DNA of 64,000 nt from an uncultured Candidatus Peribacteria bacterium (lineage in GTDB: Bacteria > Patescibacteriota > Gracilibacteria > Peribacterales > Peribacteraceae), in the NCBI GenBank assembly GCA_964460475.1, contig CAYWPP010000004.1, forward strand, positions 22,977 through 86,976, given 5' to 3'. Below the pieces are notes generated by a model. That model saw nothing but the letters and a program-made list of their open reading frames with translations. It searched no databases and was not told the origin of the DNA. The position numbers and the translations under genes are program-made. Every line of letters begins with the position of its first letter. Position 1 is the first letter of the stretch. Shown in pieces: positions 7,704 through 27,691 of the stretch.

Positions 7704-7731
7704 AAAAAAAGAGGGGATGTCTCCCCTCTTT
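7704..7731 (-). terminator. Rho-independent terminator (minus strand; weaker on plus)
   Basis: AGAGGGGA-TGTC-TCCCCTCT hairpin. It is flanked by A7 on the plus strand (T7 after the hairpin on the minus strand) and by T4 on the other side. Confidence 0.65.
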
Positions 7732-7955
7732 TCACACATGAGCGAGCGAATTACATCGCACCGCCCTGAGCCGGAGCAGCCGGAGCGTCGCCACCCTCGG
7801 GAGCGGCAGGCGCATCGGTCGCGGGAGCGGCCGGAGAAGCTGCGGGCTCAGCCGGTGGCGTTCCCTCCGTGGGAGTCGTCGGTTCATCAAACATACGAAT
7901 GGGGGAAAGAAACAGATACCTTGCGATCCTACGGACTGAGCAGGTGAGGTCAACC

Positions 7956-8795
7956 CTAAAATTCGTGTTTTTTTCCGAGATCGTCGCGATGGTAGCGGCC
8001 GAATTCCTCGATCTGTACGCAGAGGTCGTTCTTCACGACCGGGCCTTCCGTGCACAGGCGGATACCGAGCGGATCAACGGTACAGTTCCCGCAGATGCCG
8101 TACCCGCACTTCATGTAGCGTTCCAAGGAGAGCTGACTCGGAATCTTGTGCTGCGCGGTGATCTCGGAAATGCGCTTGAGCATTCTCTCCGGTCCGCAGC
8201 CGAACACCTGGTCAATCGGCGAACATCCGTCCGCACCCACGGGGCAAGCCTCCAGCAGTTTCTCGAGCATCTGGGTGTTGTACCCCTTGAATCCCACGGA
8301 ACCGTCGTCGGTCGTAATGTGGAGCGAGACGTGCGGAAGCGCCTCCAGTTCCTTCAGGTAGAGGAGGTGTTCCTTGGAGCGCGCGCCGACGATCACTTCC
8401 AACGTACAGCCGTGATCCACGGTCTCACTCGCCACGAAGTACATGGGCGCGGCGCCGTAGCCGCCCGCGACGAGCGCGATGTGCTGGCCGGGTTTCCACT
8501 CGTAGCAGGTGCCGAACGGTCCGCGCAGTCCCACGAGATCTCCGACACCGCGACGCGCAAGCTCTTGGGTCATATCACCGACGGCGAAGAAGGTGATCTT
8601 CGTCACGGCACCGTCGTCGTATGCGACGCTCATCGGCACTTCGTCGACGCCGGGAAGCCACACCATCACGAACTGGCCCGGTCGTGCACCCAGCGATCCA
8701 TCGAAGGTGTACGTTCGTACCATGTCGGTTTCCTGCTGCACATGCTTGATGCGGTAGGTCTTCGGGAGCCTGCTTTGGAGGGCGATGCGCGTCAT
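7956..8795 (-). CDS. pyrK: dihydroorotate dehydrogenase (class 1B) electron-transfer subunit
   Basis: Ferredoxin-reductase-like FAD/NAD fold (RTYTF, GQFVMV, LVAGGYGAAP) plus a C-terminal 2Fe-2S cysteine cluster (CGYGICGNC...C). Confidence 0.9.
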   Translation of the reverse strand: MTRIALQSRLPKTYRIKHVQQETDMVRTYTFDGSLGARPGQFVMVWLPGVDEVPMSVAYDDGAVTKITFFAVGDMTQELARRGVGDLVGLRGPFGTCYEWKPGQHIALVAGGYGAAPMYFVASETVDHGCTLEVIVGARSKEHLLYLKELEALPHVSLHITTDDGSVGFKGYNTQMLEKLLEACPVGADGCSPIDQVFGCGPERMLKRISEITAQHKIPSQLSLERYMKCGYGICGNCTVDPLGIRLCTEGPVVKNDLCVQIEEFGRYHRDDLGKKHEF

Positions 8796-8805
8796 TGTAT
8801 TGAGG

Positions 8806-8924
8806 AGGAGTTAGGGATGAGGGATGAGGGATTAGGGATTAGAGACTAGGGATTAGAGATGAGGAAGTATGGAGTATGGAGTAGGTGATAACGCAGCCTT
8901 CATTCGTAATTCATGATTCATACT
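8806..8924. repeat. block of degenerate 7-nt tandem repeats (GGGATTA/GAGACTA type, then GTATGGA type) between pyrD and pyrK
   Basis: Read directly from the sequence. It contains the 18-mer GGGATTAGAGACTAGGGA (8835-8852), which is identical to 9932-9949. Confidence 0.8.
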
Positions 8925-9887
8925 TCACGATTCATTAGGAGCAGTATCTGCTCTCTTCAAGAGCTCCCGATGCATTCCCCCGACGAGCTCGTCGAGCGTT
9001 TCCACTCCTTCATTCGTGCACCAGAGCTGCATCTCGTCACAGATCTTCCGGAACACGTCGATCCCCCGCTCCCACACGGCCGTGCCGATGCCGATGAGGC
9101 TTGCGCCTGCAAGAATCAATTCGAGGGCATCTTCCCCCGTCGAAACGCCGCCCGTGCCGATGATGGGCAGCGCGCCGTCGGTCGCGGCATACACGTCGGC
9201 GATGCACTTCACCGCGAGAGGCTTGATCGCTTTGCCGGACAGGCCCCCGACCTTGTTCGCCAGAATCGGCATGCGGCTCCTCAGGTCGATCGCCATGCCG
9301 GGGCCGACCGTGTTGATGACCGTGAAGCCATCCGCGCCTTCCGCGGCGCACGCCTCGGCGATGGCGGCGATGCTGTCGACGTTCGGGGAGAGCTTGATGA
9401 AGACGGGAATCTTCTTGACGGCATTCTTCACCGCTTTCGTGACGGCGGCGGCATCGGGTGCCGAGCACGCGAAGGGCCGTCCGAATTCATCCTCCACATT
9501 CGGACAACTGATGTTCACTTCCAGAAAATCCGGCTTGAGCGCACTGATCTTCTCCGCGGTCTTTCCGAAGTTCTCGATCGATTCCGCGATGACGTTCGCG
9601 ATGAGCGGTACGGGTTTCTCGTTCATGTAGAGGCCGATCTCCTCCTTCGCTTTCTCCGGCCCCGCATCGGGCACCCCGACGGCATTGAGCGTCCACTCGG
9701 GCGTTGAGATGATGGTGGGATTGCGGTGGCCCTTATGCTCCTTGAGCCACAGGGACTTCGTGGTGATGCCTCCGGCACCGTTCTGCGCGACGAACTTCCA
9801 GCTGCTTGCGGTGATTCCCATGATGCCCGAGGCCAGGACCGTCGGATTTTTGAAGGTGACGCCGAGGACCTTTCGGGAGAGATTCAC
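8925..9887 (-). CDS. pyrD: dihydroorotate dehydrogenase class 1B catalytic subunit
   Basis: TIM-barrel DHODH motifs (EVNISCPN, GGLSGKAIKPLA, IIGTGGV). GTG start at 9887. Confidence 0.92.
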   Translation of the reverse strand: MNLSRKVLGVTFKNPTVLASGIMGITASSWKFVAQNGAGGITTKSLWLKEHKGHRNPTIISTPEWTLNAVGVPDAGPEKAKEEIGLYMNEKPVPLIANVIAESIENFGKTAEKISALKPDFLEVNISCPNVEDEFGRPFACSAPDAAAVTKAVKNAVKKIPVFIKLSPNVDSIAAIAEACAAEGADGFTVINTVGPGMAIDLRSRMPILANKVGGLSGKAIKPLAVKCIADVYAATDGALPIIGTGGVSTGEDALELILAGASLIGIGTAVWERGIDVFRKICDEMQLWCTNEGVETLDELVGGMHRELLKRADTAPNES

Positions 9888-9893
9888 GGTGAA

Positions 9894-9899
9894 ATGATA
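9894..9899 (-). promoter_or_regulatory. -10 hexamer TATCAT, 6 nt upstream of the pyrD GTG
   Basis: The minus strand reads CCTATCATTTCACC-GTG. Confidence 0.4.
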
Positions 9900-9920
9900 G
9901 GGAAGGGAGTGGGAGAGTGC

Positions 9921-9972
9921 TAGGGGGGTTAGGGATTAGAGACTAGGGACTAGGAATTAGGGATTAGGGAGG
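9921..9972. repeat. left arm of hairpin cassette 1 (heptad repeats GGGATTA GAGACTA GGGACTA GGAATTA GGGATTA)
   Basis: The terminal 19-mer TAGGGGGGTTAGGGATTAG (9921-9939) matches the reverse complement of 10482-10500 at 18/19 positions. Confidence 0.85.
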
Positions 9973-10347
9973 AGAAGAGGAGGGAGAACGGACGTTGTGC
10001 TTACTCACACGTATCAGGCCGGAGAGCATTTTTCCCGTTTCATCCGTGGAACGAAGCAAGGGCCTGGCCTCTTCCTTTCCGGCAAGTTGCAATCTCAAAG
10101 CAATAAGGAGGAGCGCCTTCAGTTCGGTACATTCACCTCTCGCAATCGTGTAGACACGTGCTTTGTCACGATACGTAAATCTTCCGAAGCCTTCAGCGAT
10201 GTTCGCGACAATGCTCACCGCTGATCTTCTCATCTGCGATGTAAGTCCAAAACGCTCATCGGGTGGAAATTTTTTTTTGAGAGCATAGATTCCCTCGACT
10301 ACATTCATTGCCATACGCCACACATGGAGATCTTCAAATGAGGCCAT
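9964..10347 (-). CDS. four-helix-bundle protein (23S rRNA intervening-sequence protein family)
   Basis: Family hallmarks FEDLHVWRMAMNVV, FGLTSQMRRSAVSIVANIAEGFGR and ARGECTELK. The 3' end runs into the repeat arm. Confidence 0.9.
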   Translation of the reverse strand: MASFEDLHVWRMAMNVVEGIYALKKKFPPDERFGLTSQMRRSAVSIVANIAEGFGRFTYRDKARVYTIARGECTELKALLLIALRLQLAGKEEARPLLRSTDETGKMLSGLIRVSKHNVRSPSSSPP

Positions 10348-10353
10348 AGGGAG

Positions 10354-10359
10354 ATACTA
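10354..10359 (-). promoter_or_regulatory. -10 hexamer TAGTAT, 6 nt upstream of ATG 10347
   Basis: The minus strand reads TTGTAGTATCTCCCT-ATG. Confidence 0.4.
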
Positions 10360-10431
10360 CAAAAAATCGACCGATCCACATGCTTTCCTACGCCGGTGTA
10401 ATGCATTTCCATCCTCACAAAACCCCACATA

Positions 10432-10505
10432 CCTAGTCTCTACTCTCTCATCCCTAGTATCTAATCTCTCATCCCTAACATCTAATCCCTACCCCCCCTA
10501 AACCG
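10432..10505. repeat. right arm of hairpin cassette 1 (inverted heptad repeats)
   Basis: CCTAGTCTC...CTAATCTCTCATCCCTAACATCTAATCCCTACCCCCCCTA is the reverse-complement flavour of the left arm. Confidence 0.85.
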
Positions 10506-10589
10506 CCCTCTGCTAAGGTGTCACATCCTTAACTGACCGTCTCCGGCAAACAAGAAAAGAAATGGCGAAGGAAAACGGACGTATGTATC

Positions 10590-11888
10590 ATGACAGAAAT
10601 GCTCAGGAGGACATTCTTCGCCGCCATACTCACGATTGTTGCACTCTGCGTGCTGACGGCTGGAGTGCTCCGTCTTTTTACCCGTGATTCCGATGGAGGA
10701 ACATCGGCATTCGTCGGCTCTCTCCTGTTCCGTCCTGATCCGGGGAAAATGTCCGGACATGCATTCGTGGTTGCCTCTCTTGCGCGGGATGATCAATTGG
10801 ATCTTCTTTCGGAGGAGCATGGCATTGTTAAATGTCCGGCTTTTCTGCAGGAGGGATATCGATGGAGTACTCCGCAAGACATTCTTGAAGAAGGCATGCG
10901 TTTGTACGAGTTCAGCGAAAACTACACGGAAAAAAGCGGGGTATGGACAGGAAAGCGATATGGATACGGAGAGCCTTCGCAACAGACCATTTCGCGCTTT
11001 CAACCGGGAAAAACCTACTATGTGTCAGGAGCTGCCGGTTCTTCCTTCAATTGCCAGACCGAAGATAACGAATCGGGCGGCTCTTCATCGTCTCTCTCAT
11101 CACCCTCTTCATCTTCCTCTTCCTCTTCCCACTCTTCATCGACTCCTTCTTCTCCACCACCATTGTCAACGGAATGCATCATTGTGTCCGCCGCTTCCGA
11201 CGACGGGAAAATGCCTCCGCTCTTCACCGATATCCCCTGCGAGAACCAAGCGATAAGCGGTACGCAATTTTCCTTCCAATTCACAAGCGAAAACGCGGGC
11301 GGCGAAGAAGTCGCATTCCACGTCTTTCCCCTCGATCCGTTTCTTGACGTAAACAAAGACGGATATGTGACGATAGCCGATATACGATTCATCTTTTCAC
11401 GCATAAACATACCTGGTGCATACCATCCTGCCGCCGATCTCAATATCGAAGGACCTGACGGGTACATTTCGCCCATTGATGCATTGATATGGAGTAACTA
11501 TGCACGCAGCGCTCTTCCGACAGGCATGGTGCTGCATCCCTCTTCAGGCCTTCTGACATGGACACCCACCACCGAACAAGAAGGCACACACTATGTTGCC
11601 GTCAATATGTACACTCCCGCTCCGGATTATCGCAGTCCGTATTCCTCGGCGGTAATCAGGATTGCCGTCGCGGAAAATGACGGTACAACGATTCCGCCGG
11701 CATCATCGTCGTCTTCGTCTTTCTCACTCTCCTCCTTCTCCTCGTCTTTCTCCTCTTCCTCCTCAGCACCGGCTCTCTGTGGAAACGGAATGATCGAAGC
11801 GGGCGAGGAATGCGATGACGGAAACGCCGTCGACGGAGACGGCTGTTTCTCCACCTGCGTTTTCATGTTGCCTCCCACGCAACCATGA
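10590..11888 (+). CDS. secreted or anchored multidomain protein: novel Cys-bounded N-domain, Ser-rich linkers, dockerin-like and He_PIG/Ig-like segments, C-terminal Myxococcus-type Cys-rich repeat
   Basis: N-terminal signal anchor. Poly-Ser linkers. DVNKDGYVTIADIRFIF (dockerin/EF-hand-like). LPTGMVLHPSSGLLTWTPT (putative Ig). CGNGMIEAGEECDDGNAVDGDGC (Cys-rich repeat). ATGA overlap with the next gene. Confidence 0.7.
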   Translation: MTEMLRRTFFAAILTIVALCVLTAGVLRLFTRDSDGGTSAFVGSLLFRPDPGKMSGHAFVVASLARDDQLDLLSEEHGIVKCPAFLQEGYRWSTPQDILEEGMRLYEFSENYTEKSGVWTGKRYGYGEPSQQTISRFQPGKTYYVSGAAGSSFNCQTEDNESGGSSSSLSSPSSSSSSSSHSSSTPSSPPPLSTECIIVSAASDDGKMPPLFTDIPCENQAISGTQFSFQFTSENAGGEEVAFHVFPLDPFLDVNKDGYVTIADIRFIFSRINIPGAYHPAADLNIEGPDGYISPIDALIWSNYARSALPTGMVLHPSSGLLTWTPTTEQEGTHYVAVNMYTPAPDYRSPYSSAVIRIAVAENDGTTIPPASSSSSSFSLSSFSSSFSSSSSAPALCGNGMIEAGEECDDGNAVDGDGCFSTCVFMLPPTQP

Positions 11889-14800
11889 TGTCCACGCAAG
11901 TCCGCTCCCGGCTGCCTTTCATTGTCATATCGATCGCCATCGGACTGACAATCTTGCTTGCATTGAGCGTGTTCCCACAACAGGGAACGAATATTCTCGG
12001 CACCCTCACCGCTCCTCCAAATCCGCATATCGTACGCACCGTAAACAACGAAAACTTCCTGCCAAACATGGTGCTGTCACACGGAGAAAGTCGCTATATT
12101 CCCAAGAATATTCATACGTTTATCACATGTCCCGCCTCGCCGTTGCCACCCGGATACCGTTGGAGCACTCCGCAAGAATATGCGTCATCGCATCTTCTCA
12201 TGTATGAATTTTCTCCGGATGCCGATCAGGAAAAAAGCATAATGAATCAGGATTGGCCCGGTTTGCGCTACGGCTACGCGTCTTTCGAAGATACGCTCGG
12301 TTCGTTGCGGTCTGACCGCACATACTACGTATATGCATCGGAAGAAATCTTCTCTTTCCAGTGCAGCAGGCAAGTGAATGACTCGTGTACGAACATCTAT
12401 TTCGCAGATGCATTGAATAACGCTCTGCATGTGATTGGTACCGATGGAATCACGGTGCAAGACATCCCTCTGGAAATACCCGCGACGGAAAGACTCTCAG
12501 CGAGCGCCGTCGATTTGGAACGGAATACTCTGTATTGGGGCCATAAGAACACGGTATACAAATCTTCATTACTCACAGGAGAGACTGCATTCGTAGCATT
12601 ATTGCCAAACGCCGCTGTCATCAGGGAAATACATGCGGACCCGCGCCTTGATATGCTGCATATCCATGCAGCGGAAGTCGATCCGAGCGGAAGTCCAACC
12701 GGCAATGAATTGGCATACGAAATACGGAATGCATCCGCGTCTGCAACTGCACATGAAATGGGACAAGGCTTCCGCGCGGTTGATGCAAAAAACCGCATCG
12801 GTTACATGCTGACAAAAAATGCCAATAGCATGGAACTGCGGGCCGTGCACTTGGATACATTTACCGAGAACGTTCTTTACTCTTTAAGCGAGACAACCGG
12901 TCTGACCGTGCAGAGGGTCGCGGCATCGGAAGGAAAAGTGTATTGGCTCAACGTGCCGCTTATCGAGCCTTCGGCATTAAAGCCCACATTTTGGCGCATG
13001 GATAGTGAAGGAGGTGATCCGGAACAATTGTTTGCAATTCATTCCCCGAAAAATGCCATTCGTTCCTTCACGACGGACGGCATCAACGAAAAAGTGTACT
13101 GGACTCAACAACAGTCGAATATCTCTCGAGTATACCGTGCGAACATGGACGGCTCGGAAGCGGAACAAGTCTTTTCGGGACAATCGTGGATCTTCTCGGT
13201 TCAGGCGATCGACTCTTGTTGGTCTTCTGCCGTCAACCCCGTTGTGCATGCCGACGAAATATGGGCAAGATTTAGCGGAACGACGATAATGCTGGGCTCG
13301 GCATCGGATCCTTCGATGAGGAAGTATGATTTCTCGGATCTTATGGGCGGATTTGCGGTGAAAGAGTTGACCATTGATACGTTGAATCAACGCATGTTCT
13401 GGCTTTCGGAAAATGATTATCTCTTCGGAGCATATCTGGACGGTTCCGACGCCTTTGTCATAAGCCACGGCCCGTTGATTCAAGAAACATCGATCACGGT
13501 AGATCCGGTCGGCAAGCGACTGTACTCTACTCAAAGAGATACACGCATCGTAAGCAGGGCATACGATGCAACCGAATTCCGTGTCGAGTATGAAACGGGC
13601 AATGCTCTTCTTTTTGTTTCCGAACTCGTCGCTGACGGACCGGGTCGTAAGATATTTTTCATCGAAGCACTCCCTCCTCCGGGTAGGCAGGAAGCAATTG
13701 GCATTCTGGATTTGAACGGAGGAAGCAAGCGTACGCTTCCCGGATCGGCATCCAACTTCCCCCTCTCTTACTTGACCGTCGATAGTGAGGAGGAAAGGCT
13801 CTATTGGAAGAACGGAAGACTTGCAACGTATGTGGATCTTGCGACTGAATCACCGATAGAAACTCTGGATATTCCGGACGGAGCGGCCTTTGCCGTTCGT
13901 GGCGATCTTTTCCATTGGCTGGACTGGCATTATCGCCTGTGGCAGGGAAAAATCCTTGCCGGAAAGGTTCTAGAAAGAATAATGGTGCTCGACGAATCGT
14001 TTGCACGATTCCCTGCCGTGGCTATAGGCCAAGTACAACATGTGTCAAGGAGTACGGAATTATCGGTCGAACTGTCAGCTCCGGACTTCACCGTTCCGAC
14101 ACGATCCGATGAGTACAGGATAATACTGAAGAATACGGGGGACTACGTTGCGCTGAATCCGAAAATCACCTTGGAAATTCCCGATACAGTTACCCCAATC
14201 AACCCGTGTCCATCGACACAGAATGCTCAGGGGAGAACGCAGATGACTTGCGACCTATCGATCCTCGGCGCCCAGCAGGAATCAGTGATCACATTCATAA
14301 TGAATGCATCGGCCGACACGTCCTGTGATTCCCCTCTCTCTTTCCTTCTTCGTGCCGAAGCCGACAATGCCACGACTCAATCTTCGGTCGTGGAAGTTCC
14401 AATGGAATGCCAGCAACTGGAACTTGCCGTGAACGGTCCATCTCAACTGACTCACGAAACAAACATTTTGTATTCTTTCTCGCTCAGGAATAACGGACCG
14501 AAAACGACAAATGAGACTCGCGTCGTCAACTACATTCCGGATCAACTTGAATTCCTTCCGGAAGAAAGTGCTGCGGAATGCGTCGTCGGATCTTTAGCTG
14601 GAAGCAGGGTTCTGACATGCACTTATGACAGTCTTTCACCTCTTGAGCAAATCACGAGCGTGCTGCATTTTCGGGTGCGTTATCATCGCGATGTGTATCC
14701 ATGCGGGGAAATACAGAATCCTTTCGTGGCCGAAGCGGCAGATGCCCCTCCCGTGGAATCGGTGCATATCACGAATCTTCTCTGTCCGGCGGAACCTGAT

Positions 14801-15220
14801 TTGCGTATCAGCGCATTTCAAGGACCTGCACTGCAAGGTCTCAACCAACTCGAAACATATTCTTACACCATCGAAAACAGGGGCGGCAGAGTTGCGAACA
14901 ATGTAATCGTGTCCGTTTCCTATCCTGCTGACGGCGTTACAAGAGTGCTGCCTGCTCATTGCAAAGGAGTGAACTGGATGGGACAGGGTCCTCGCAAAAT
15001 TGAGTGCACGATCGGCGATGTGTTTCCGGCTCAACCCAGAAGCGGTACCATCGAATTTGAACTGCTCTACTGTGCCTCGCCTTGGAACAATAGTTCAGTG
15101 TTTCCCTTGCACATACAGGTAGCTTCGGATGAAGCGTACCCATTGCAGGGTGTATCAACTCGCAGAATTCATGATGGAAGACAACTATCGGGGACTGAGT
15201 GGGTATGCAATGGGCAATAG
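11885..15220 (+). CDS. large secreted protein: paralogous N-domain, YWTD-like beta-propeller repeats, C-terminal DUF11-type repeats
   Basis: Eight spaced [KR]x[YF]W-type motifs (TLYWGH, KVYWLN, KVYWTQ, RMFWLS, RLYSTQ, KIFFIE, RLYWKN, LFHWLD). Three repeats of the YxxxLxNxGxxxxxN type (DUF11-like). Signal anchor at the N-terminus. Confidence 0.75.
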   Translation: MMSTQVRSRLPFIVISIAIGLTILLALSVFPQQGTNILGTLTAPPNPHIVRTVNNENFLPNMVLSHGESRYIPKNIHTFITCPASPLPPGYRWSTPQEYASSHLLMYEFSPDADQEKSIMNQDWPGLRYGYASFEDTLGSLRSDRTYYVYASEEIFSFQCSRQVNDSCTNIYFADALNNALHVIGTDGITVQDIPLEIPATERLSASAVDLERNTLYWGHKNTVYKSSLLTGETAFVALLPNAAVIREIHADPRLDMLHIHAAEVDPSGSPTGNELAYEIRNASASATAHEMGQGFRAVDAKNRIGYMLTKNANSMELRAVHLDTFTENVLYSLSETTGLTVQRVAASEGKVYWLNVPLIEPSALKPTFWRMDSEGGDPEQLFAIHSPKNAIRSFTTDGINEKVYWTQQQSNISRVYRANMDGSEAEQVFSGQSWIFSVQAIDSCWSSAVNPVVHADEIWARFSGTTIMLGSASDPSMRKYDFSDLMGGFAVKELTIDTLNQRMFWLSENDYLFGAYLDGSDAFVISHGPLIQETSITVDPVGKRLYSTQRDTRIVSRAYDATEFRVEYETGNALLFVSELVADGPGRKIFFIEALPPPGRQEAIGILDLNGGSKRTLPGSASNFPLSYLTVDSEEERLYWKNGRLATYVDLATESPIETLDIPDGAAFAVRGDLFHWLDWHYRLWQGKILAGKVLERIMVLDESFARFPAVAIGQVQHVSRSTELSVELSAPDFTVPTRSDEYRIILKNTGDYVALNPKITLEIPDTVTPINPCPSTQNAQGRTQMTCDLSILGAQQESVITFIMNASADTSCDSPLSFLLRAEADNATTQSSVVEVPMECQQLELAVNGPSQLTHETNILYSFSLRNNGPKTTNETRVVNYIPDQLEFLPEESAAECVVGSLAGSRVLTCTYDSLSPLEQITSVLHFRVRYHRDVYPCGEIQNPFVAEAADAPPVESVHITNLLCPAEPDLRISAFQGPALQGLNQLETYSYTIENRGGRVANNVIVSVSYPADGVTRVLPAHCKGVNWMGQGPRKIECTIGDVFPAQPRSGTIEFELLYCASPWNNSSVFPLHIQVASDEAYPLQGVSTRRIHDGRQLSGTEWVCNGQ

Positions 15221-15251
15221 CAAAGCAGACCTCCGATTTGAGATCGCCCTC

Positions 15252-16112
15252 TTACACATCCCTTTGCTTCGGAAAGAGCCTGTCCCTCCGCAAGAACACG
15301 ACCGCAGAGAGAATCACTCCATAGAGCAGCAGACGAACGGGGCCGAGAATGTCGGGCGGCAGATCGACGAACCGGAGTCCTTCACGCAGGAAGACGAGCA
15401 CGATCGTGGAAACCGTGACCCCGAGCACGCGCCCCGGACCTCCGGCAAGGACGCACATGATGAAGAAAATCATCACCGGAAAGTTGTAATTGCCCGGACT
15501 GAGCAGGTGAATGTACGGCGGAAAGAGAATCGCGGAGACCACGGAGCCGAATCCGGCGATGAGAAAGGCAATCGTATGGAGTTTCCTGCGGGAGACGCCG
15601 AGTGATTCCGCATGCCACTCGTGCTCGGAGAGCGCCGCCATGCCGCGGCCGAACGAACTGCGATCAAGAAGGACAAGCGCGGTGATCCACAGGAGAACGA
15701 GAACGATGACGAGGGCTGCAAACGCCTCCGTACTTGCGGGGAGGAAAAGCCGGGGCACCCGCGGAATGCCGAGTGCACCGCGCGTGACGGACTGCCAGTT
15801 CAAGACGACGGCGAGCACGGCAAGGTGTACGGCGATGGAGAGCACGCCGAGGCCGTCGGGGTCCAGCCGGAACGAGAGCCACGCGAAGAAGAGCGCGCAG
15901 AGCGCAGTCGCGGCTATGCAGAGCGCGAGAGACGGAATGAACGCGTACCCGTAACGCATGAGCGGCACCCAGAGCGCGTACGCCGCGATGATCGAAAACG
16001 CCTCCTGTCCGAAGTGCAGGATTTTCCCTTTTCCGAAGACGACGTTGTACCCGAGCACCGGGAACAGCGTGATGCCCGCCAGAATCGTGGTGTGCAGGAG
16101 AAACTGCGTCAT
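15252..16112 (-). CDS. livM: branched-chain amino acid ABC transporter permease
   Basis: Starts at MTQFLLHTTILAGITLF (ATG 16112, ATGA overlap with livH). LivM-type multi-TM protein. Confidence 0.85.
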   Translation of the reverse strand: MTQFLLHTTILAGITLFPVLGYNVVFGKGKILHFGQEAFSIIAAYALWVPLMRYGYAFIPSLALCIAATALCALFFAWLSFRLDPDGLGVLSIAVHLAVLAVVLNWQSVTRGALGIPRVPRLFLPASTEAFAALVIVLVLLWITALVLLDRSSFGRGMAALSEHEWHAESLGVSRRKLHTIAFLIAGFGSVVSAILFPPYIHLLSPGNYNFPVMIFFIMCVLAGGPGRVLGVTVSTIVLVFLREGLRFVDLPPDILGPVRLLLYGVILSAVVFLRRDRLFPKQRDV

Positions 16113-16987
16113 GCGGTACGGGAGGATGATGCGAACATGCCGGCAGGTTTCAGGAGCAGGAAGAAGATAATGAAGAGGAGCGCGACGGTATTCTGGTATC
16201 CCGCAGGCACGTAGAACAGCCGGAACCAGTGAATGCCGATGACAAGTTGCTCCAGAAGGGCGATCAGGTAGGCGGCGGCGATGGCTCCCCAGAAGTTCCC
16301 CTTCCCTCCCGCGATGATCGCCGCGTATGCCTTGATGGTAATGGAGAACGCGAGCGTCGGTGTCAGGCTCTGATCGATGCCGATGAAGATGCCGCCGCAC
16401 GCCGCAAGCACACCGCTCAGAATGAAGATGATGCGATGGAGCATCGGCGCGTGGATACCGAGGCTCATGGCCGCGTGATCGTGCTGCACGACTGCACGGA
16501 TACGGCGTCCGAGGAACGTGGAGTGCAGAACGTACGCGAAGAGGACGAGCAGCAACAGCGTGAAACCGATCAGTGCGATCTGTTCGGAAGAGATGCGCGC
16601 GCCGAGAAGAGTCATCGTCTGCTTCGTTCCGGACAGAATGCCGCGGGGACGTTCTTCAAAGAGGAGCAGAATAACCGCATCGAGGATCATGCTGAGTGCG
16701 ATCGTCGTGACGAGCGGCAAGAAGCGGTGGTGCTTGTAGAACGGACGAATGAAGAATTCAAACGTCATCCATGCGATGAGTGCACCCGTCACAAGTCCGC
16801 CGAGAAGACTCAGGGCGAACGGAAGCTCGAGGACGCTTGCGAGCCACCACGTCGCGTAGCCGCCGATGAGCACCATCTGGCCAAGCGCGAGGTTAAAGAC
16901 GCCGAGGGTGCCATACACCAACGACAGGCCCCCCGCGATCAGAGCCGCAAGGGAGCCTGCGATGAGCGCATTTGCGAGGAGCTGCAT
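16109..16987 (-). CDS. livH: branched-chain amino acid ABC transporter permease
   Basis: MQLLANALIAGSLAALIAGGLSLVYGTLGVFNLALGQ is a typical LivH N-terminus. Multi-TM protein. Confidence 0.9.
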   Translation of the reverse strand: MQLLANALIAGSLAALIAGGLSLVYGTLGVFNLALGQMVLIGGYATWWLASVLELPFALSLLGGLVTGALIAWMTFEFFIRPFYKHHRFLPLVTTIALSMILDAVILLLFEERPRGILSGTKQTMTLLGARISSEQIALIGFTLLLLVLFAYVLHSTFLGRRIRAVVQHDHAAMSLGIHAPMLHRIIFILSGVLAACGGIFIGIDQSLTPTLAFSITIKAYAAIIAGGKGNFWGAIAAAYLIALLEQLVIGIHWFRLFYVPAGYQNTVALLFIIFFLLLKPAGMFASSSRTA

Positions 16988-18917: not shown

Positions 18918-18963
18918 TGGGGGAGAGAATAAACTGTTTGAAGAGAAAGAAACACCTTCAGGT

Positions 18964-19008
18964 GAAAATACGAGAATACTAAAATGCGAAAATACTAAAA
19001 AAAACATG
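18964..19008. repeat. left terminal inverted repeat of hairpin cassette 2
   Basis: GAAAATACGAGAATACTAAAATGCGAAAATACTAAAAAAAACATG. Its reverse complement occurs at 19460-19503, differing only in run length (A8 versus T7). Confidence 0.9.
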
Positions 19009-19075
19009 TGGAGGCGCTTTAAAGCACTAATGTGCAAAAGCAGACAACACACATGGCGCAGGATACCGTGACTCC

Positions 19076-19435
19076 ATGCCTGCACCGTACAAGTACGAAG
19101 CATTGGAAGAGCGCACGCTGGCGTTTGCCGCAGCCGTCCGTAAGTTTGCGAAGAATATTCCTCTCCATCACTACTCGGATGATTTGAGACAGCTACTCCG
19201 TTCCTCCGGTTCCGTGGGTGCAAACTACATCGAGGCGAATGAATCGTTGGGAAGAAAGGACTTCGTCATGCGTATACGGCTATGCAAAAAGGGGGCAAAG
19301 GAAAGCGCATACTGGCTCCGGCTTCTCGCTTTAGATGACACACATGGCAGTGCATACAGAAAACTGCGAAAGGAAGCACGCGAGCTGATGCTTATTTTTG
19401 CGGCCATTCTTCGGAAATGCGATAAGAAGAAATGA
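19076..19435 (+). CDS. four-helix-bundle protein (23S rRNA intervening-sequence protein family)
   Basis: LRSSGSVGANYIEANESLGRKDF and KGAKESAYWLRLL are family hallmarks. It lies inside the inverted-repeat cassette. Confidence 0.9.
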   Translation: MPAPYKYEALEERTLAFAAAVRKFAKNIPLHHYSDDLRQLLRSSGSVGANYIEANESLGRKDFVMRIRLCKKGAKESAYWLRLLALDDTHGSAYRKLRKEARELMLIFAAILRKCDKKK

Positions 19436-19459
19436 GTTTTCCCCTCTTTTGATGTTTCG

Positions 19460-19503
19460 CATGTTTTTTTAGTATTTTCGCATTTTAGTATTCTCGTATT
19501 TTC
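19460..19503. repeat. right terminal inverted repeat of hairpin cassette 2
   Basis: CATGTTTTTTTAGTATTTTCGCATTTTAGTATTCTCGTATTTTC. Confidence 0.9.
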
Positions 19504-19532
19504 ATCTTCGTTCTTCTCATTCCTCAAAAGAA

Positions 19533-21242
19533 CTACTTCTTTCTCGTGCAGGCCTTCATAAATGCATTAAATAACGGATGCGGTCTGTGCGGTCTGCTCT
19601 TGAATTCGGGGTGGAACTGCGACCCGAGCATGAAGGGATGATTCTTGACCTCCACGATTTCCATGATGCCGGTTCCGGGCCACTCGCCGGAGAAGACGAG
19701 TCCTTTCTCTTCCAGCTTCTTCTTGAGGGCGTTGTTGAACTCATAGCGATGGCGATGGCGCTCGGAGATCGTCTTCGTACCGTATGCCTCGTGAGCCTTC
19801 GTGCCGGGCTTCAGTTCGCACTCGTACGCACCGAGCCTGAGCGTGCCTCCTTTCGCTTTGCCTTTGTGCTGATCGGGGAGGAAGTGCACCACGTACTTCG
19901 AACGTGAACGCTCGCCGTCTTCATCGAATTCCTCGCTCGTGAGTGCCGGGTCCTTGAGCATGGCGCGTGCGAATTCAATGGCGAGAATCTGCGAACCCAG
20001 GCAGAGGCCGAGGTACGGAATCTTATGAGTACGGGCATGGCGGGCGGCTGCGATCTTTCCCTCGATACCGCGGATGCCGAATCCGCCCGGCACGAGGATG
20101 CCGTCGCAAGACCTGAGCGCATCCCATGTCTCTTTGTCGTTCTCTTCGAGCTTCTCGCTGCTCACCCAGACGATTTCGGCTTTGCGTCCGTAGTGGACGG
20201 CCGCCGACTTCAGCGCCTCGATCACGCTCAGGTACGCATCATCAAGTCCGGTGTACTTGCCGACGAGCGCAATCTTCACATCGCCATCCGCATCCTCGTA
20301 CCGACCCCTGCCCTTCTCCCACTCCGACATATCGGGCGCAATGTGGCCGAGCGCAAGCCGTGACCCGATGATCTGCGCGATGTCGTACTTCTGAAGATTG
20401 AGCGGCACATCGTAAATCGAGTTCACGGTCTGGGCGGGAATGACCGCACGACGGTCCACGTCGCAGAACCGGGCGATCTTGTCGAGGAGTTCGGCGGGAA
20501 TCTTGTAGTCCGCACGCGCGAGGATCATGTCGGGTTGCAGGCCGATGCGCCGAAGTTCACGCACGGAAAGCTGCGTCGGCTTCGTCTTCAGTTCCTTGGA
20601 ACCCTTCAGGTACGGCAGGAGCGTCAGATGCACGTGGAAGATGCGATCGTTGCCGAGATCGGAACGCATTTGCCGGATCGCCTCCAGAAACGGCTCGCCT
20701 TCGATGTCGCCGACCGTGCCACCGACCTCCACCATCATAATGTCGGCTCCGTTCTTCTCGGCTGCCTGCATGATGGAACGCTTGATGGCATCCGTGATGT
20801 GCGGCACCACCTGAATCGTCCCGCCGAGGAAGTCGCCTTTCCTCTCGCGCGCGAGCACGTCGGTGTAGATCTTTCCCGTGGTCACCGTGGAGAGTTTGCT
20901 CATCGGTTCGTCGATGAACCGTTCGTAGTGCCCCAGGTCGAGGTCGGTTTCCGCGCCGTCGTCCGTGACGAAGACTTCGCCGTGTTGGAACGGACTCATG
21001 GTACCGGGGTCGACGTTCAGGTACGGATCGAGCTTCTGCACGAACACTTTGAACCCGCAGGCCTTCATGATCGCACCGATACTGGCGGTCGCGATACCTT
21101 TTCCGAGCGAACTGCACACCCCGCCCGTCACGATGATGTAGCGCGAAGAGGCGGGAGCGCGTCCCGCGGCCGGAGTCTTCTTCTCGTTCTTCCCTTGCGG
21201 GATCTCTGGGGGTGTCCGTGTCTTCTGCTTCGGTGGAATCAT
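19533..21242 (-). CDS. pyrG: CTP synthase
   Basis: Synthetase domain (YIIVTGGVCSSLGKGI) plus glutaminase domain (GLCLGSQ, HRHRYEFN). ATG 21242 preferred; TTG 21257 possible. Confidence 0.95.
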   Translation of the reverse strand: MIPPKQKTRTPPEIPQGKNEKKTPAAGRAPASSRYIIVTGGVCSSLGKGIATASIGAIMKACGFKVFVQKLDPYLNVDPGTMSPFQHGEVFVTDDGAETDLDLGHYERFIDEPMSKLSTVTTGKIYTDVLARERKGDFLGGTIQVVPHITDAIKRSIMQAAEKNGADIMMVEVGGTVGDIEGEPFLEAIRQMRSDLGNDRIFHVHLTLLPYLKGSKELKTKPTQLSVRELRRIGLQPDMILARADYKIPAELLDKIARFCDVDRRAVIPAQTVNSIYDVPLNLQKYDIAQIIGSRLALGHIAPDMSEWEKGRGRYEDADGDVKIALVGKYTGLDDAYLSVIEALKSAAVHYGRKAEIVWVSSEKLEENDKETWDALRSCDGILVPGGFGIRGIEGKIAAARHARTHKIPYLGLCLGSQILAIEFARAMLKDPALTSEEFDEDGERSRSKYVVHFLPDQHKGKAKGGTLRLGAYECELKPGTKAHEAYGTKTISERHRHRYEFNNALKKKLEEKGLVFSGEWPGTGIMEIVEVKNHPFMLGSQFHPEFKSRPHRPHPLFNAFMKACTRKK

Positions 21243-21538
21243 AGAAAACCTGGGCAATCCTTCCGGGGGAGTGGTTCGACCTCGTTCACCACAAGAGGAG
21301 CCCGCCGAGAATTATACGGAGGAAAACGCCAAAATCAAGTTGAAACAGGTGTTGCGCCGGGCGGCGAATTTCCTATGATGGAACCACAAGAAAGAACATG
21401 ATGTTCCTTCTTGTACAGGGTCTCTTCGTTCTAGCACCACCGGGTATCATCCATTCATTGGAATCACCAGGTGCTAGGCGTAAGAGACTCTCTTTTTGCG
21501 TGTTGCGAGAGAGTCTCCACGCACCGGCATATCCGTCA

Positions 21539-24189: not shown

Positions 24190-26592
24190 TCACGGTCGCT
24201 CTTCCTCATGCCGCAACGCGACGTGCAGGGCAGAAAGTTGCGCCGCGGAGAGAATCGTCAGGAGCGACTCGTCATCGGCATTCCGGAGGGAAGAGATCGT
24301 AGGATGCATCTTCTGCAACTTCTTCTTCGTCGCGGGACCGATACCGGGGATCGTATCGAGCACCGACCGGCGACCCGCGGCAAGACCCTTCTTCTCGCGG
24401 AGCGAGTTCGCGAAACGATGCGCTTCGTCACGCAGACGACGAAGCAGGAAGAGCGCCGGCGCGTCCTTGGGGAAATCGACGGGGTGACTGTTCCCCGGCA
24501 CGAAGAGCTCCTCTTCCCTCTTCGCGAGCGCCGCGACGGGAATGGAGAGCGACAGGTAATCGAGAACCTCGACGGCGACGCCGAGTTGGCCCTTTCCCCC
24601 GTCGATCAGCAGAAGATCGGGGCGCTGCGTGAAGGAAGGGTCCGGGGCATTGGACTTCGCTTGGTACATCATGGCGAGGCCGCGCGGTTGTGCCGCATCG
24701 GCTTTATGATGCGTATCCAACCGCTCGCGAAGCACGGACGGCTCGGTGATAACGTGTTGAAAACCGAGCGACGCGTAGTACTGTTCCGACGCAACGTCGA
24801 TCGTGACGTACACTTTCCCCTTCTTGACGCGGCGCAGCATGAGGCGCGCGAGCAATCTGCCGAGTCCCTTGCCCCTGAGGGAAGCATGAACCCACAGGGA
24901 TGTGAGCTCGGTGACACTCTTGGGATGCGCAAAGAGACGGACGCACCCGACGATCTCGTCGCCTCTGCGCGCGACGAGAAGATCCGCCGGCTTCAAATCG
25001 GCGGCCTCGAATATCTTCTCCTCTTTCAGAATTTCCTTCACGCGGGCAACGTCCGCCTTGCGCGCCTTGCCGATGACGACTCCTTCATCTTTCCATCGTT
25101 GCTGCTCGGTTTTCAGATCGAGGGACAGGTACGCGAGTCTGCGTCGGAGTACCTCCCGCAAGGAGGCGTAGTCATCGATGTCCCCTTCCTTCAGGGACCG
25201 GATCGTGAACGAACGGTAGTGGTCGCGACGCGGCTTACCGTCGATCATCACGGTCATGCTTCCAACGGTCTCGGTGCCGCCGAGATGCGAGATGTCGTAC
25301 CCCTCGATGCGACGCGGCGGGGCCGACAGTTCGAGAGCCTCCTGCAGTCCGGTGAGCGCGGCATCGACGCGGCGGGCATCCGCCTCCCACTTCGCCTCGC
25401 TCTGCTCGGCCTTCCACCGTGCGTTCTTTTCCGCAAGAAGAAGGAGAGAGGATTTTTTGCCGCGCTGCGGAACGCGGATGGTCGTTTTCTTCCCGCGCCT
25501 TTCGTTCAGAAGTCGCACGAGAGCGTCGGCTTCGCCGGGTTCATCCGAGAGAATGATCTGATCGGGAAGATCCGAAGCGGCGAGATAGTACTGCGGCAGA
25601 AACTGATCGAGCACTTCGGCGACGCTGTCGGCATTTCCTTGCAGGGAAAAATTCTCCTCGGCGAGGAGTTTGCCGTCGCGCTGGCGAAACAGGACGACCG
25701 TCGCGCGGTTCGTATGCAGCGCGACGCCGATGATGTCGGCGTCATCGCCGGACGTATCGGACGCGAGCTGCTTTTCGTTCATGGCACGCAGCGATTGCAG
25801 CTGATTGCGCAGCTCCGCGGCCCGCTCGAATTTTCTCTCTTCCGCGGCTTGCTTCATCTTCGCCTCCAGCATTCTCTCGGCATCGTCACGTTTGCCGGAC
25901 AGAAACGCAATGACGCCGTCGATGGCACGCTCGCGATACTGTGCCGGAGTCACTTTGCCGACGCACGGCGCACAGCACTGCTTGATGTGGTGATCGAGGC
26001 ACGGCGTCGGACGGTCGCGGTGCAGGCAGGTAACGGCCAGAGGAATCGTCGCCTCGGATGAGGGTTCCTTCGGCATGATCTCCATGGTGCACGTGCGAAA
26101 CGGAAAAAGTTTGCGGAGGAACCCCAGCGTCGACCGCGCCTGCTCTGCGCTCGTCTTCGGACCGAAGTACAGCGCGCCGTCGTCTTCCATTTTCCTGACG
26201 ATATCGATCCGTGGATACGGATCCTTCATCGTGATGCGTACGTACACGTAGTGCTTGTCGTCCTTCATCATGATGTTGTACTTGGGTTTGAGTTCTTTGA
26301 TGAGATTGGTTTCGAGGACGATTGCTTCCAGATCGGAATTCACCACGGTCGTATCCACGTCGCGGATTTGGCGCACCATCATGTCTTTCCATGGCGAGTG
26401 TTTCTGCCCCGGCTGTACGTAACTCCTGAGCCTGTTGCGCAGATTCTTCGCCTTGCCGACGTAGAGCACCGCGCCGTCCTTATCGAGCCACTTGTAGATG
26501 CCGGGGCTCTGCGGAGCCTGCGCGATGCGTTGACGGAGAATCGCAAGCGCATCCTCCTGCTTCTTGCCGACACGTTTCTTTTTGGAAACCAT
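24190..26592 (-). CDS. uvrC: excinuclease ABC subunit C with an inserted GNAT-like domain
   Basis: GIY-YIG (GIYKWLDKDGAVLYVGKAKNLRNRL). UVR motif (ERKFERAAELRNQLQSL). C-terminal nuclease (EGYDISHLGG ... LLLIDGGKGQL). HhH (IPGIGPATKKKL). See the finding for the insertion. Confidence 0.9.
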   Translation of the reverse strand: MVSKKKRVGKKQEDALAILRQRIAQAPQSPGIYKWLDKDGAVLYVGKAKNLRNRLRSYVQPGQKHSPWKDMMVRQIRDVDTTVVNSDLEAIVLETNLIKELKPKYNIMMKDDKHYVYVRITMKDPYPRIDIVRKMEDDGALYFGPKTSAEQARSTLGFLRKLFPFRTCTMEIMPKEPSSEATIPLAVTCLHRDRPTPCLDHHIKQCCAPCVGKVTPAQYRERAIDGVIAFLSGKRDDAERMLEAKMKQAAEERKFERAAELRNQLQSLRAMNEKQLASDTSGDDADIIGVALHTNRATVVLFRQRDGKLLAEENFSLQGNADSVAEVLDQFLPQYYLAASDLPDQIILSDEPGEADALVRLLNERRGKKTTIRVPQRGKKSSLLLLAEKNARWKAEQSEAKWEADARRVDAALTGLQEALELSAPPRRIEGYDISHLGGTETVGSMTVMIDGKPRRDHYRSFTIRSLKEGDIDDYASLREVLRRRLAYLSLDLKTEQQRWKDEGVVIGKARKADVARVKEILKEEKIFEAADLKPADLLVARRGDEIVGCVRLFAHPKSVTELTSLWVHASLRGKGLGRLLARLMLRRVKKGKVYVTIDVASEQYYASLGFQHVITEPSVLRERLDTHHKADAAQPRGLAMMYQAKSNAPDPSFTQRPDLLLIDGGKGQLGVAVEVLDYLSLSIPVAALAKREEELFVPGNSHPVDFPKDAPALFLLRRLRDEAHRFANSLREKKGLAAGRRSVLDTIPGIGPATKKKLQKMHPTISSLRNADDESLLTILSAAQLSALHVALRHEEERP

Positions 26593-26594
26593 CA

Positions 26595-26848
26595 GAGAGA
26601 AAAATGCTAAAATGCTAGAGCACTAAAATGCTAGAGCACTAAAATACTAGAGAAAGGGGGAAAGAACGAAAGGCAGAAAGGGCGAAAGAAGCTTCTCAAT
26701 ATGGGAAAAGAATGAAAAACAAAAAAATATTTGTTTCTTCTCTCATATAGCTGTTTCGCATCTTTTTTCGTCTATCTCGGACTTTCGAACGTCTTTTTAG
26801 TATTCTAGTACTTTAGTATTTTAGTATTTTTTACCTCTAGCATTCTCC
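26595..26848. repeat. ORF-less hairpin cassette of the AATACTA/GCTAGAG repeat family
   Basis: The left arm has AAAATGCTAAAATGCTAGAGCACTAAAATGCTAGAGCACTAAAATACTAGAG. The right arm has TTTTTAGTATTCTAGTACTTTAGTATTTTAGTATTTTTTACCTCTAGCATTCTC, an imperfect inverse of the left arm. Confidence 0.7.
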
Positions 26849-26869
26849 TGTATCTGTATCATAGCAGCC

Positions 26870-27691
26870 GTGAACCCCAGCGTTTCCGCCATTGTCCTCA
26901 ACTATCGTTCGCCGAAGGACACCCTGACGTGCGTGCGTGCCCTGCTCCGGCAAACGATGGCAGACGAACTGGAAATCATCGTGGTGGACAATCACTCGGA
27001 CGATGAGTCCATCGGAGTATTTCGCGCCGCATGGAAGGATGAGCCGCGGGTGCGCGTCGTCGAGTGCGGGCGCAACGTCGGGTATGCGCGCGGCAACGCC
27101 GTCGGTATGCGCGCGGCACGAGGCCGGTATGTACTCTTCATCAACCCGGACAATACTCCGCCCGAGACTGCGGTACGGGATCTTGCGGACATACTGCAAG
27201 GCCATCCGGACATCGGCATCGTGGCCCCTGCACTCCTCTATCCGGACGGAACCGTCCGCCCGTCCGCCCGCTCGTTTCCGACCGTGCTCGAGCTCTTCAT
27301 GAAGCGCATCGCGGCAAAAACGTGGCACGAAAGACACAAGAACACTCCGGTCTCCGGCGGCATGTCCGCGATGCAGGACGTCGACTGGGTGGCCGGAGCA
27401 TGCCTCATGATCGAAAAGTCGTTCTTCGAGCAGCTGGGCGGATTCGACGGGCGCTTCTTCCTGTTCTTCGAGGACATCGACCTCTGCCGACGCGTGTGGC
27501 AAGCGGGCAAACGCGTCGTGTACGCACCGGGCATACATGTCTCCGATAAACCGCGGCGCTTGAGCGAAGGAGGCATTCTCTCCCTCCTCTGGAAGAAAAC
27601 GGGCAGGATTCACCTGCGAAGCGGCATCCGGTACTTCCGGAAATGGCCGCGAGCGCAGGAAGAACGCCGTAAAGCCCTTACCGGGTCTTGA
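26870..27691 (+). CDS. family 2 glycosyltransferase
   Basis: VSAIVLNYRSPKDTLTCVRAL, VVDNHSDD and LFINPDN are typical GT2 (GT-A) motifs. GTG start. Confidence 0.85.
   Translation: MNPSVSAIVLNYRSPKDTLTCVRALLRQTMADELEIIVVDNHSDDESIGVFRAAWKDEPRVRVVECGRNVGYARGNAVGMRAARGRYVLFINPDNTPPETAVRDLADILQGHPDIGIVAPALLYPDGTVRPSARSFPTVLELFMKRIAAKTWHERHKNTPVSGGMSAMQDVDWVAGACLMIEKSFFEQLGGFDGRFFLFFEDIDLCRRVWQAGKRVVYAPGIHVSDKPRRLSEGGILSLLWKKTGRIHLRSGIRYFRKWPRAQEERRKALTGS

Follow-up and report, generated by a model that had tools for sequence, protein, structure and literature searches.

Four-helix-bundle genes enclosed by matched tandem-repeat arms in operon spacers of a Peribacteria genome: cassettes that probably belong to the intervening-sequence type

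The closest described relatives of the elements reported here are the intervening sequences (IVSs) of 23S rRNA, which carry an S23p open reading frame (ORF) in Leptospira, Coxiella burnetii and Brucella (Ralph & McClelland 1993; PMC4990558). In Coxiella, the same ORF lies in a loop that is closed by a 28-bp terminal inverted-repeat stem and RNase III cuts this stem in vitro (PMC4990558), while 2-3 tandem GACAGAT heptamers, whose copy number is strain-dependent, are found upstream of the ORF (Warrier et al. 2016, PMC4990558). A survey of the candidate phyla radiation (CPR) also located such four-helix-bundle (4HB) genes in insertions of 16S and 23S rRNA. Here we describe 4HB genes that are enclosed by inverted arms of 6-8-nt tandem repeats, starting from two such cassettes in operon spacers of a 64,000-nt stretch (the window) of contig CAYWPP010000004.1 from an uncultured Candidatus Peribacteria bacterium. 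The protein family concerned, PF05635/TIGR02436, is large, scattered and often multi-copy, and it occurs inside important operons including CRISPR-cas and groESL; its functional anchors have so far been only the rRNA IVSs and a homology to Avd, the accessory protein of diversity-generating retroelements (DGRs).

The arms relate to a second puzzle, the intergenic heptamer repeats (STRR, GGGNATC), which have been without explanation for more than 30 years. The STRR sequences of cyanobacteria were reportedly described as intergenic heptamer repeats by Mazel et al. in 1990. Inverted repeats in co-transcribed spacers are also familiar from REP/BIME and from the Correia/NEMIS elements of Neisseria; RNase III cuts the Correia/NEMIS hairpins, and REP has the RAYT transposase. 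Rehm et al. 2015 catalogued intergenic GGGAATC and GGGGAYT repeats in Xanthomonas and Nostoc and counted 70-75 convergent (inverted) pairs of GGGAATC arrays per Xanthomonas genome (PMC4692102). Most Xanthomonas heptamer repeats are transcribed and conserved in position; in the supplementary table, array #15 overlaps the start codon of XCC0516, the crystallised 4HB protein, which the paper passes over without comment, and another heptamer array is listed between groES and groEL (PMC4692102). The TAACTGA repeats of Beggiatoaceae belong to the same intergenic class (PMC4679880). In the open-access literature, we found no paper that links 4HB genes to matched tandem-repeat arms, and the Peribacteria genome paper leaves the cassettes unmentioned.

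Read along the minus strand, the window holds pyrG, cassette 2, a livF-like ABC ATPase gene, transporter genes, two large secreted-protein genes, cassette 1, pyrD and pyrK. Cassette 1 has pyrD and a secreted-protein gene as its neighbours, and cassette 2 has the livF-like gene and pyrG. The main features are as follows:

7956-8795, minus strand: pyrK, separated from pyrD by a spacer of 130 nt
8925-9887, minus strand: pyrD
9921-10500, minus strand: cassette 1, a 4HB gene within inverted tandem-heptad arms, upstream of and co-directional with pyrD
9921-9975: left arm of cassette 1 (3' arm in the sense of the gene), with plus-strand units GGGATTA/GAGACTA/GGGACTA/GGAATTA
9964-10347, minus strand: 4HB gene of cassette 1, 127 aa, type 1, PF05635/TIGR02436
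10446-10500: right arm of cassette 1 (5' arm in the sense of the gene); the tandem array begins at 10428
18960-19507, plus strand: cassette 2, a 4HB gene in inverted arms of 8-nt units (GAAAATAC type), between the livF-like gene and pyrG and antisense to both
19076-19435, plus strand: 4HB gene of cassette 2, 119 aa, type 2, 18% identical to the type-1 protein
19510-19533: GTTC box (GTTCY-N-RGAAC), a hairpin that separates the right arm of cassette 2 from the stop codon of pyrG
19533-21257, minus strand: pyrG

An earlier sequence-only reading had proposed a cassette at 9921-10500 with inverted arms of 7-nt tandem units, and our searches recovered it. The arms 9921-9975/10446-10500 are 55 nt long and 78% complementary in an inverted-repeat search, and Tandem Repeats Finder resolved them into GGGATTA x6.6 at 9925-9970 and a period of 21 (3x7) at 10428-10487. 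The terminal 19-mers named in that reading, TAGGGGGGTTAGGGATTAG and the reverse complement of CTAATCCCTACCCCCCCTA, indeed agree at 18 of 19 positions. The left arm overlaps the final 12 nt of the 4HB ORF. In cassette 2, the arms 18960-19003/19464-19507 are 44 nt long, 98% complementary and composed of 8-nt units. Folding of the arms had been suggested as a check, and in both the minimum free energy and the centroid structures they form the closing stem of each window cassette. Expressed as fold z-scores, in which the RNA fold energy is compared with that of shuffled sequence, cassette 1 (RNA of the minus strand) reached z = -2.2 and cassette 2 z = -7.2.

The concern that such repeats might be confined to this contig or produced by assembly could be addressed directly. 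An independent Logan assembly of run SRR9016294 spans window positions 8774-16413 with 3 mismatches, all within pyrD. Because this assembly agrees, and because the design recurs in other genomes, including finished genomes of cultured cyanobacteria, the cassette is not an assembly artefact.

To see how general the design is, we scanned one genome per species and collected 70 loci (cited below, like the loci added later, by L number) with relatives of the cassette-1 protein, mostly from metagenome-assembled genomes (MAGs) of Peribacteria; the other contigs are labelled Gemmatimonadota, Pirellulaceae, delta- and gammaproteobacteria, Falkowbacteria and Gracilibacteria. The search used a narrower alignment, as a broad alignment of 24 sequences had no conserved stretch. 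For each 4HB gene, the arm score was obtained by aligning the 350 nt upstream to the reverse complement of the 350 nt downstream. In 66 of 77 4HB genes the arm score exceeded the 99th percentile of controls taken at 353 random positions of these loci, and nearly all of the arms in question were periodic with a lag of 6, 7 or 8. Pairing far above chance, as the sequence-only reading had expected, is therefore seen both with the random-position controls and with the fold z-scores. Within any one cassette both arms share one unit, whereas the units vary widely among cassettes (GGGTTA, GGGCGTA, GAATACTG, GAGTAAGA, AGTGATG, GTTATAC, GTACTGG and others) and differ even between cassettes of one MAG. 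Two of the loci, L005 and L036, are labelled Kiritimatiellales; over 1-2 kb their flanks share 68-80% nucleotide identity with those of L008, L032 and L016, which are Peribacteria loci, and these two contigs are probably mis-binned Peribacteria.

A blind inverted-repeat scan over 774 kb gave the same picture from the side of the arms. It returned 46 inverted repeats that enclose a 4HB gene (median spacer 458 nt) and 49 bare hairpins, which are short (median spacer 33 nt) and in 38 cases periodic, and among periodic-arm repeats with a spacer of at least 250 nt it found no cargo other than 4HB. The purine-rich arm comes first in all cassettes (41:0) and in most bare hairpins (31:9); since an inverted repeat is symmetric, flipping of a cassette leaves this polarity unaffected. 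At L023:212-976 lies a 63-nt non-periodic inverted repeat (score 111) around 639 nt without a 4HB gene, which is a different kind of element. Of 65 cassettes, 53 have neighbours that both point the same way; 38 of these cassettes are in sense with them and 15 are antisense.

The design also extends well beyond Peribacteria. It is present in the finished cyanobacterial genomes of Calothrix NIES-22 (GGGTGTA), Anabaena sp. 90 (GGTGACA, between cas6 and cas4) and Geminocystis (GGGAAAA). In a Phycisphaerales contig (JBQLZO010000097.1, L079:1621-4051), a 4HB cassette stands in sense between groES and groEL, its 36-nt arms of GGCATCC/GGGATCA units being near-perfect, and two further distant metagenomic homologues conform, one between dcd and the ribonucleotide reductase gene and one after an HSP70 gene. 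Judged from these comparisons, gene and arms travel together across phyla as one heritable unit, and the cassette is demonstrably tolerated inside essential operons.

The cargo proteins belong to PF05635/TIGR02436. The type-1 protein is full-length and matched PF05635 with E = 1.7e-34 and TIGR02436 with E = 2.5e-31, and the type-2 protein with E = 2e-9 and E = 4.2e-15, all above the curated cutoffs. The nearest solved structure to the type-1 protein is 2GSC (2gsc_A, XCC0516 of Xanthomonas; E = 3.2e-20). With Avd (PF22296 bAvd) it has in common a homologous four-helix-bundle fold and weak model matches, but its scores of 24.8 bits for DivGenRetAVD (cutoff 80) and 25.8 for bAvd (cutoff 40) remain below both family cutoffs. 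No reverse transcriptase was found among the annotated or window-homologous neighbours of the cassettes, unannotated neighbour ORFs not being part of that screen; PADLOC defence models gave no match, and a search of IMG/VR for phage carriage returned no relative. The dN/dS values of the 4HB genes are 0.06-0.18 in six informative pairs, which indicates that the protein is in use and under purifying selection. The two subtypes follow the site, type 2 adjoining pyrG with 49-62% identity among the window, L049, L026 and L015, and the base composition of the arms tracks the subtype (n = 4 vs 42, non-independent). Given the Avd homology and this subtype-specific composition, binding of the 4HB protein to the arms would be at most a reasonable guess. 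One copy, at L066:6001-6332, is probably a pseudogene: 7 nt are missing from its conserved AEGFG motif, so that the 4HB gene falls into two frames. Its GGGTTA arms are nevertheless perfect.

When set against the described systems, the cassettes resemble the rRNA IVSs in the PF05635 protein in the loop, the long terminal inverted-repeat stem (at least about 20 bp), the purine-rich heptamers upstream of the ORF, the sense position within a host transcript and the size of ~430-580 nt. They differ in that the window cassettes lie between protein-coding genes and not in rRNA helix 25 or 45, in that long tandem arrays stand on both sides and both orientations occur, and in that purifying selection acts on the 4HB ORF, as opposed to the decay of the Coxiella ORF. 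Like the heptamer repeats, they have ~7-nt head-to-tail units confined to spacers, at most reaching the last 4HB codons. Unlike them, they have no genome-wide unit, the window alone containing GGGATTA, AAAATACT, AAATAAG and GGGTTAC/CAACTCGC; moreover, where the heptamer papers propose G-quadruplex or translational signals, we see matched inverted arms around one gene family, with units of 6-8 nt that are G- or A-rich. REP/BIME and Correia/NEMIS are likewise short inverted-repeat elements in co-directional gene spacers, but each of those families has a conserved sequence within a genome, whereas the present elements conserve the design alone and have a protein-coding cargo.

The statement of the sequence-only reading that no described element class fits was thus too strong, because the cargo is the S23p/4HB protein of the 23S rRNA IVSs and heptamer arrays had already been catalogued. 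The cassette is most probably an IVS-type element outside rRNA that is built from the known heptamer-repeat class, and it is not unprecedented. What is apparently new is the location outside rRNA and the general tie between PF05635 genes and inverted tandem-repeat arms that match each other and put the purine-rich arm first. It also appears to be new that cassettes persist and flip at syntenic operon spacers and that the arm sequence turns over fully under a conserved design.

The syntenic pyr sites of the relatives show what moves. Upstream of pyrD, a cassette is present in the window, L003, L044, L038, L049, L007 and L025, and downstream of pyrG in the window, L049, L026, L040 and L015. The orientation of the cassette differs between orthologous sites, although all neighbouring genes keep theirs. 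For example, the type-2 cassette beside pyrG is antisense in the window and sense in L049, L026 and L015. The GTTC box stays by pyrG in the window, L049 and L026, and in L015 it is on the side away from livF. Because the GTTC box and the neighbouring genes keep their place, only the arm-bounded segment has been inverted. An inversion of the whole 8.4-kb block between the two window cassettes was considered and rejected, as g15252, g16972 and livF are oriented as in L007, L025 and L015.

Duplication is seen in L008 and L009, two contigs of one MAG, which are 92.6% identical over ~443 nt that end at the outer edges of the arms, with unrelated flanks. Their arms and leader diverge by ~3% (counted from the alignment) vs 29% at synonymous sites. 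In the comparison of L041 with L066, the flanks are ~88% identical (estimated from the alignment), while both arms have changed (GGGCGTA vs GGGTTA) and the gene is only ~60% identical, which fits either replacement of the cassette or fast concerted change. Across these aligned loci, the segment from arm to arm behaves as the unit of duplication, inversion and replacement.

The GTTC box itself deserves a brief description. In its full form, CGTTCY-N9-12-RGAAC, the hairpin has a stem that does not vary; after it come a stretch rich in U, another hairpin that is small and variable, and a run resembling AAGCCRAAAA. The box accompanies ~26 cassettes in relatives (for example L010:5879-5940, L044:5879-5940, L051:2125-2186 and, on the minus strand, L049:8675-8736). 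In many type-1 cassettes it stands within the arms, 116-120 nt before the 4HB start; in type-2 cassettes it is outside the 5' arm. In a 'long' type-1 class (L010, L013, L030, L044 and others), the distance from box to ATG stays at 116-120 nt and the sequence between, ~60 nt nearest the start codon, is unconserved. In the window, the pattern has only 6 matches vs 2.4 expected. Rfam holds no family for the arms or the GTTC box, and its sole match in the window is a tRNA-Glu. Two further candidates near the ORF were tried and rejected: a hairpin conserved immediately before the 4HB start codon (median z = -0.41), and arms acting as a three-frame stop-codon barrier, the stop density of the 5' arm being equal to that of shuffles.

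Besides the two cassettes, the window contains arrays and hairpins of the same style without a 4HB gene:

8806-8864: solo array of (AGGGATK)n heptads within the pyrD-pyrK spacer, in the same orientation as arm 9921-9975 and without a hairpin of its own
8864-8926: small degenerate hairpin of AGTATGG/ATTCATG heptads in the same spacer, with 20-nt arms 8864-8883/8907-8926 that are 75% complementary
26601-26844: long cargo-less hairpin in a divergent spacer, with outer arms of AAAATGCT/AGAGCACT units and inner arms of GAAAGNNC units
39825-39896: short A/T hairpin with AAATAAG as its unit, located between convergent genes
44736-44879: cargo-less hairpin of AAAATACT units in a convergent spacer, with arms 44736-44760/44855-44879
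61551-61663: imperfect hairpin of GGGTTAC (7-nt) vs CAACTCGC (8-nt) arrays in the spacer upstream of a thymidylate-synthase-like gene (named by sequence reading)

That further elements of the window follow the same design with other units had been noted before, and all of them (18960-19507, 26601-26844, 44736-44879, 39825-39896 and 61551-61663) proved real. The inverted arm pair of the long hairpin is 26611-26651/26804-26844, and the region 26590-26850 folds with dG = -87.3 and z = -8.7; the corresponding scores are z = -7.1 for 44725-44890 and z = -2.5 for 61530-61680. The right end of 44736-44879 is identical to the right end of cassette 2 at 56 of 64 positions, including ~27 nt internal to the arm. 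In L007, a cargo-less periodic hairpin occupies the livF|pyrG spacer, where the window holds cassette 2. Loss of cargo, as the compared loci present it, leaves short tandem-repeat hairpins or a solo arm.

The solo array is instructive in this respect. In operon sense, the pyrD-pyrK spacer contains a short purine-rich heptad run, its partial partner and then a partnerless 54-nt pyrimidine-rich array of TAATCCC type, which Tandem Repeats Finder reports as TTAGGGA x7.7 at 8811-8864. The region 8790-8945 shows no folding beyond shuffles (z = +0.4). As stated in the sequence-only reading, pyrD is bracketed by direct heptad-array copies (8811-8864 and 9925-9970), and the 18-mer GGGATTAGAGACTAGGGA occurs on the plus strand at 8835 and 9932 and nowhere else in the window. 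The idea that these direct repeats serve to rearrange pyrD fits less well than a remnant cassette: pyrD lies beside pyrK in all 10 pyrD-containing relatives. Two unit variants link the solo array to the neighbouring cassette, the rare GAGACTA, which also occurs in arm 9921-9975, and GGGATGA, which also occurs in arm 10446-10500; the array therefore derives from that cassette or has had sequence exchange with it. Since three relatives (L015, L018 and L038) carry an intact 4HB cassette in this very spacer, 8811-8864 is probably the leftover arm of a former cassette whose 5' arm and gene were lost. The array is 74% complementary over 68 nt to 10425-10492 in the far arm of cassette 1, and a long-range pairing that loops out the 4HB gene and pyrD is possible on paper.

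It seems highly probable to us that the cassette is an IVS-type unit in which a 4HB gene occupies the loop of a hairpin. The complete reading, in which such units with arms of inverted 6-8-nt arrays sit in operon spacers and are cleaved by RNase III, is one that we hold to be rather likely; for the cleavage of the arm stem taken by itself, which we argue by analogy, the case could go either way. In this proposal, the host operon would be transcribed through the cassette and the arms would pair as 20-55 bp of double-stranded RNA. RNase III would then cut the arm stem, as has been demonstrated for rRNA IVSs. The cut would uncouple the cassette from its neighbours, which would make it harmless even between groES and groEL, and would free or control the 4HB message. 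Because tandem repeats can pair in several registers, the arms tolerate slippage, and slippage together with hairpin-templated repair could keep the arms matched while the sequence of the unit drifts.

Several observations speak against this proposal or limit its reach. The gene signature of RNase III was not found in the ~0.8 Mb of sequence examined. The 15 antisense cases among the 53 operon-embedded cassettes would need a promoter of their own, and a scan for sigma-70 promoter consensus around both window cassettes gave nothing above shuffle expectation; a parallel scan for intrinsic-terminator consensus also gave nothing above it. Among arm mismatches in the sense transcript there was no excess of G:U (119 vs 108, p = 0.51). 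As this test gave no strand-specific signal, nothing points specifically to selection on RNA structure over DNA structure, and we regard the result as uninformative, not contrary. At L008/L009, no transposase, recombinase or target-site duplication was seen. In cyanobacteria, the copies of Nostoc PCC 7120 have heptamers on the 3' side only, and a Pseudanabaena gene is flanked by direct, non-inverted arrays. Finally, homologues from a single 4HB subfamily guided the choice of loci, most of which are from Peribacteria, so the figure of 86% of genes with arms is no family-wide census.

Among other explanations, the hairpins may be host regulatory structures (processing sites, attenuators or 3'-end stabilisers) in whose loops the 4HB gene repeatedly settles as an opportunistic passenger, the arms being no part of the mobile unit. 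Bare hairpins are as common as cassettes (49 vs 46 in the 774 kb, ~4 vs 2 in the window), the livF|pyrG spacer is bare in L007 and filled in the window, and the Xanthomonas repeats are mostly transcribed and positionally conserved (PMC4692102). We nevertheless consider this unlikely, as the L008/L009 identity takes in both arms and halts at their outer ends, arms and gene switch together at the L041/L066 site, the strict purine-first polarity of the cassettes (41:0) is relaxed in bare hairpins (31:9), arm composition follows the 4HB subtype, albeit in a small sample, and the association of gene and arms spans phyla with unrelated units. Both orientations of orthologous cassettes occur at three pyr-cluster sites with fixed flanks, and the arms are 44-55 nt long, all of which would suit a DNA-level switch in which recombination between the arms flips the cassette and alters expression of the 4HB or pyr genes. 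Such a switch is improbable: no recombinase is present among the annotated or window-homologous neighbours, the orientation differs between genomes that are 16-34% apart in pyrD protein and not within a population, the independent Logan assembly has the orientation of the window, and the sense bias of 72% speaks against free flipping.

The arms have also to be considered as G-quadruplex regulatory repeats, as proposed for GGGNATC in Xanthomonas and Nostoc, with the hairpin being incidental. Many units are indeed GGG plus 3-4 nt (GGGATTA, GGGTTA, GGGCGTA), and Rehm et al. saw G-quadruplexes in vitro (PMC4692102). However, only 17 of 43 cassette arms have at least three G3 tracts, the type-2 cassettes and the bare hairpins of the window have A-rich units without G tracts, and the constant feature is inverted pairing; we rejected the proposal as a general explanation and regard it as very improbable. 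A classical non-autonomous transposon of the miniature inverted-repeat (MITE) kind, with the arms as terminal inverted repeats for a transposase encoded elsewhere, would account for the inverted termini, the within-genome duplicate in unrelated flanks and the short cargo-less relatives. It is hard to reconcile with arms that differ within one genome and between orthologous sites, leaving no common transposase-binding end, with the lack of a target-site duplication at L008/L009 and of a transposase in the neighbourhoods, and with the persistence of cassettes at syntenic sites across the class, and we give it scant credence. Short-read assemblers do break or mis-join at repeats and most loci are MAGs, but chance or a low-complexity artefact is refuted, with negligible probability left to it, by the controls, the fold z-scores, the independent assembly, the finished cultured genomes and the Sanger-era sequences of Coxiella and Xanthomonas. 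A bolder extension of the IVS-type reading is conceivable though doubtful, namely that PF05635 tandem-arm cassettes form one ancient, transposase-free selfish class uniting rRNA IVSs, STRR/Xanthomonas heptamers and the orphan operon 4HB genes (cas, groESL, pyr). Here a 4HB pentamer would recognise the arm units, whether the nucleic acid is single- or double-stranded, and would help the cassette to be copied, inverted or maintained, and the bare hairpins would be decay products or landing pads.

The rule that gene and arms go together offers a common, testable frame for the two puzzles, the orphan 4HB genes and the heptamer repeats, and it predicts RNase III cut sites and a possible ligand of the protein. 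It also accounts for assembly breaks at such spots. The mode of evolution is unusual, in that the design (inverted arms, periodic units, purine-rich arm first) is kept while the sequence is fully turned over. Furthermore, the rule may partly explain why 4HB genes have been scored 'CRISPR-associated', as the copies examined in cyanobacterial cas loci are cassettes of the same design; Zhang & Ye list 18 such 4HB genes inside cas loci (PMC3936711).

Some details of the cyanobacterial copies may be added. In L076 (Anabaena sp. 90 pANA02) and L077 (a Pseudanabaena galeata plasmid), the 4HB gene lies between cas6 and cas4 of type I-D CRISPR-cas loci. The annotated start of cas4 in L076 contains the 3' arm and seems to have been mis-called, and in L077 10-14 direct copies of AAAAGCT/AAAAGCC flank the 4HB gene. 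The loci L073 and L074 (Nostoc PCC 7120 plasmids gamma and alpha) encode the identical 4HB protein WP_010994075.1, each copy directly downstream of the same transposase 3' end, and their 3'-side heptamers are CTTCTGC.

The remaining observations concern the window. Between cassette 1 and the transporter genes, positions 10590-15220 encode two big secreted-type proteins (one of 432 aa with DUF4215, He_PIG and dockerin matches, the other of 1111 aa). Both genes are absent from this position in L007, L025 and L015, where a cassette or pyrD adjoins the g15252 homologue, and the pair looks like an insertion beside the cassette. At 7706-7733, a G+C hairpin with flanking A and T runs (AAAAAAAGAGGGGATGTCTCCCCTCTTTT) has the canonical shape of a bidirectional intrinsic terminator and adjoins a small Ala/Pro-rich ORF (7751-7894, minus strand); given this terminator-type hairpin, the tandem-repeat hairpins are probably not the sole hairpin signals of this genome. 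A 23-nt tandem repeat (TGCGCGCGGCAACGCCGCGGTA, ~2.5 copies) is located at 27065-27131 inside ORF 26870-27691.

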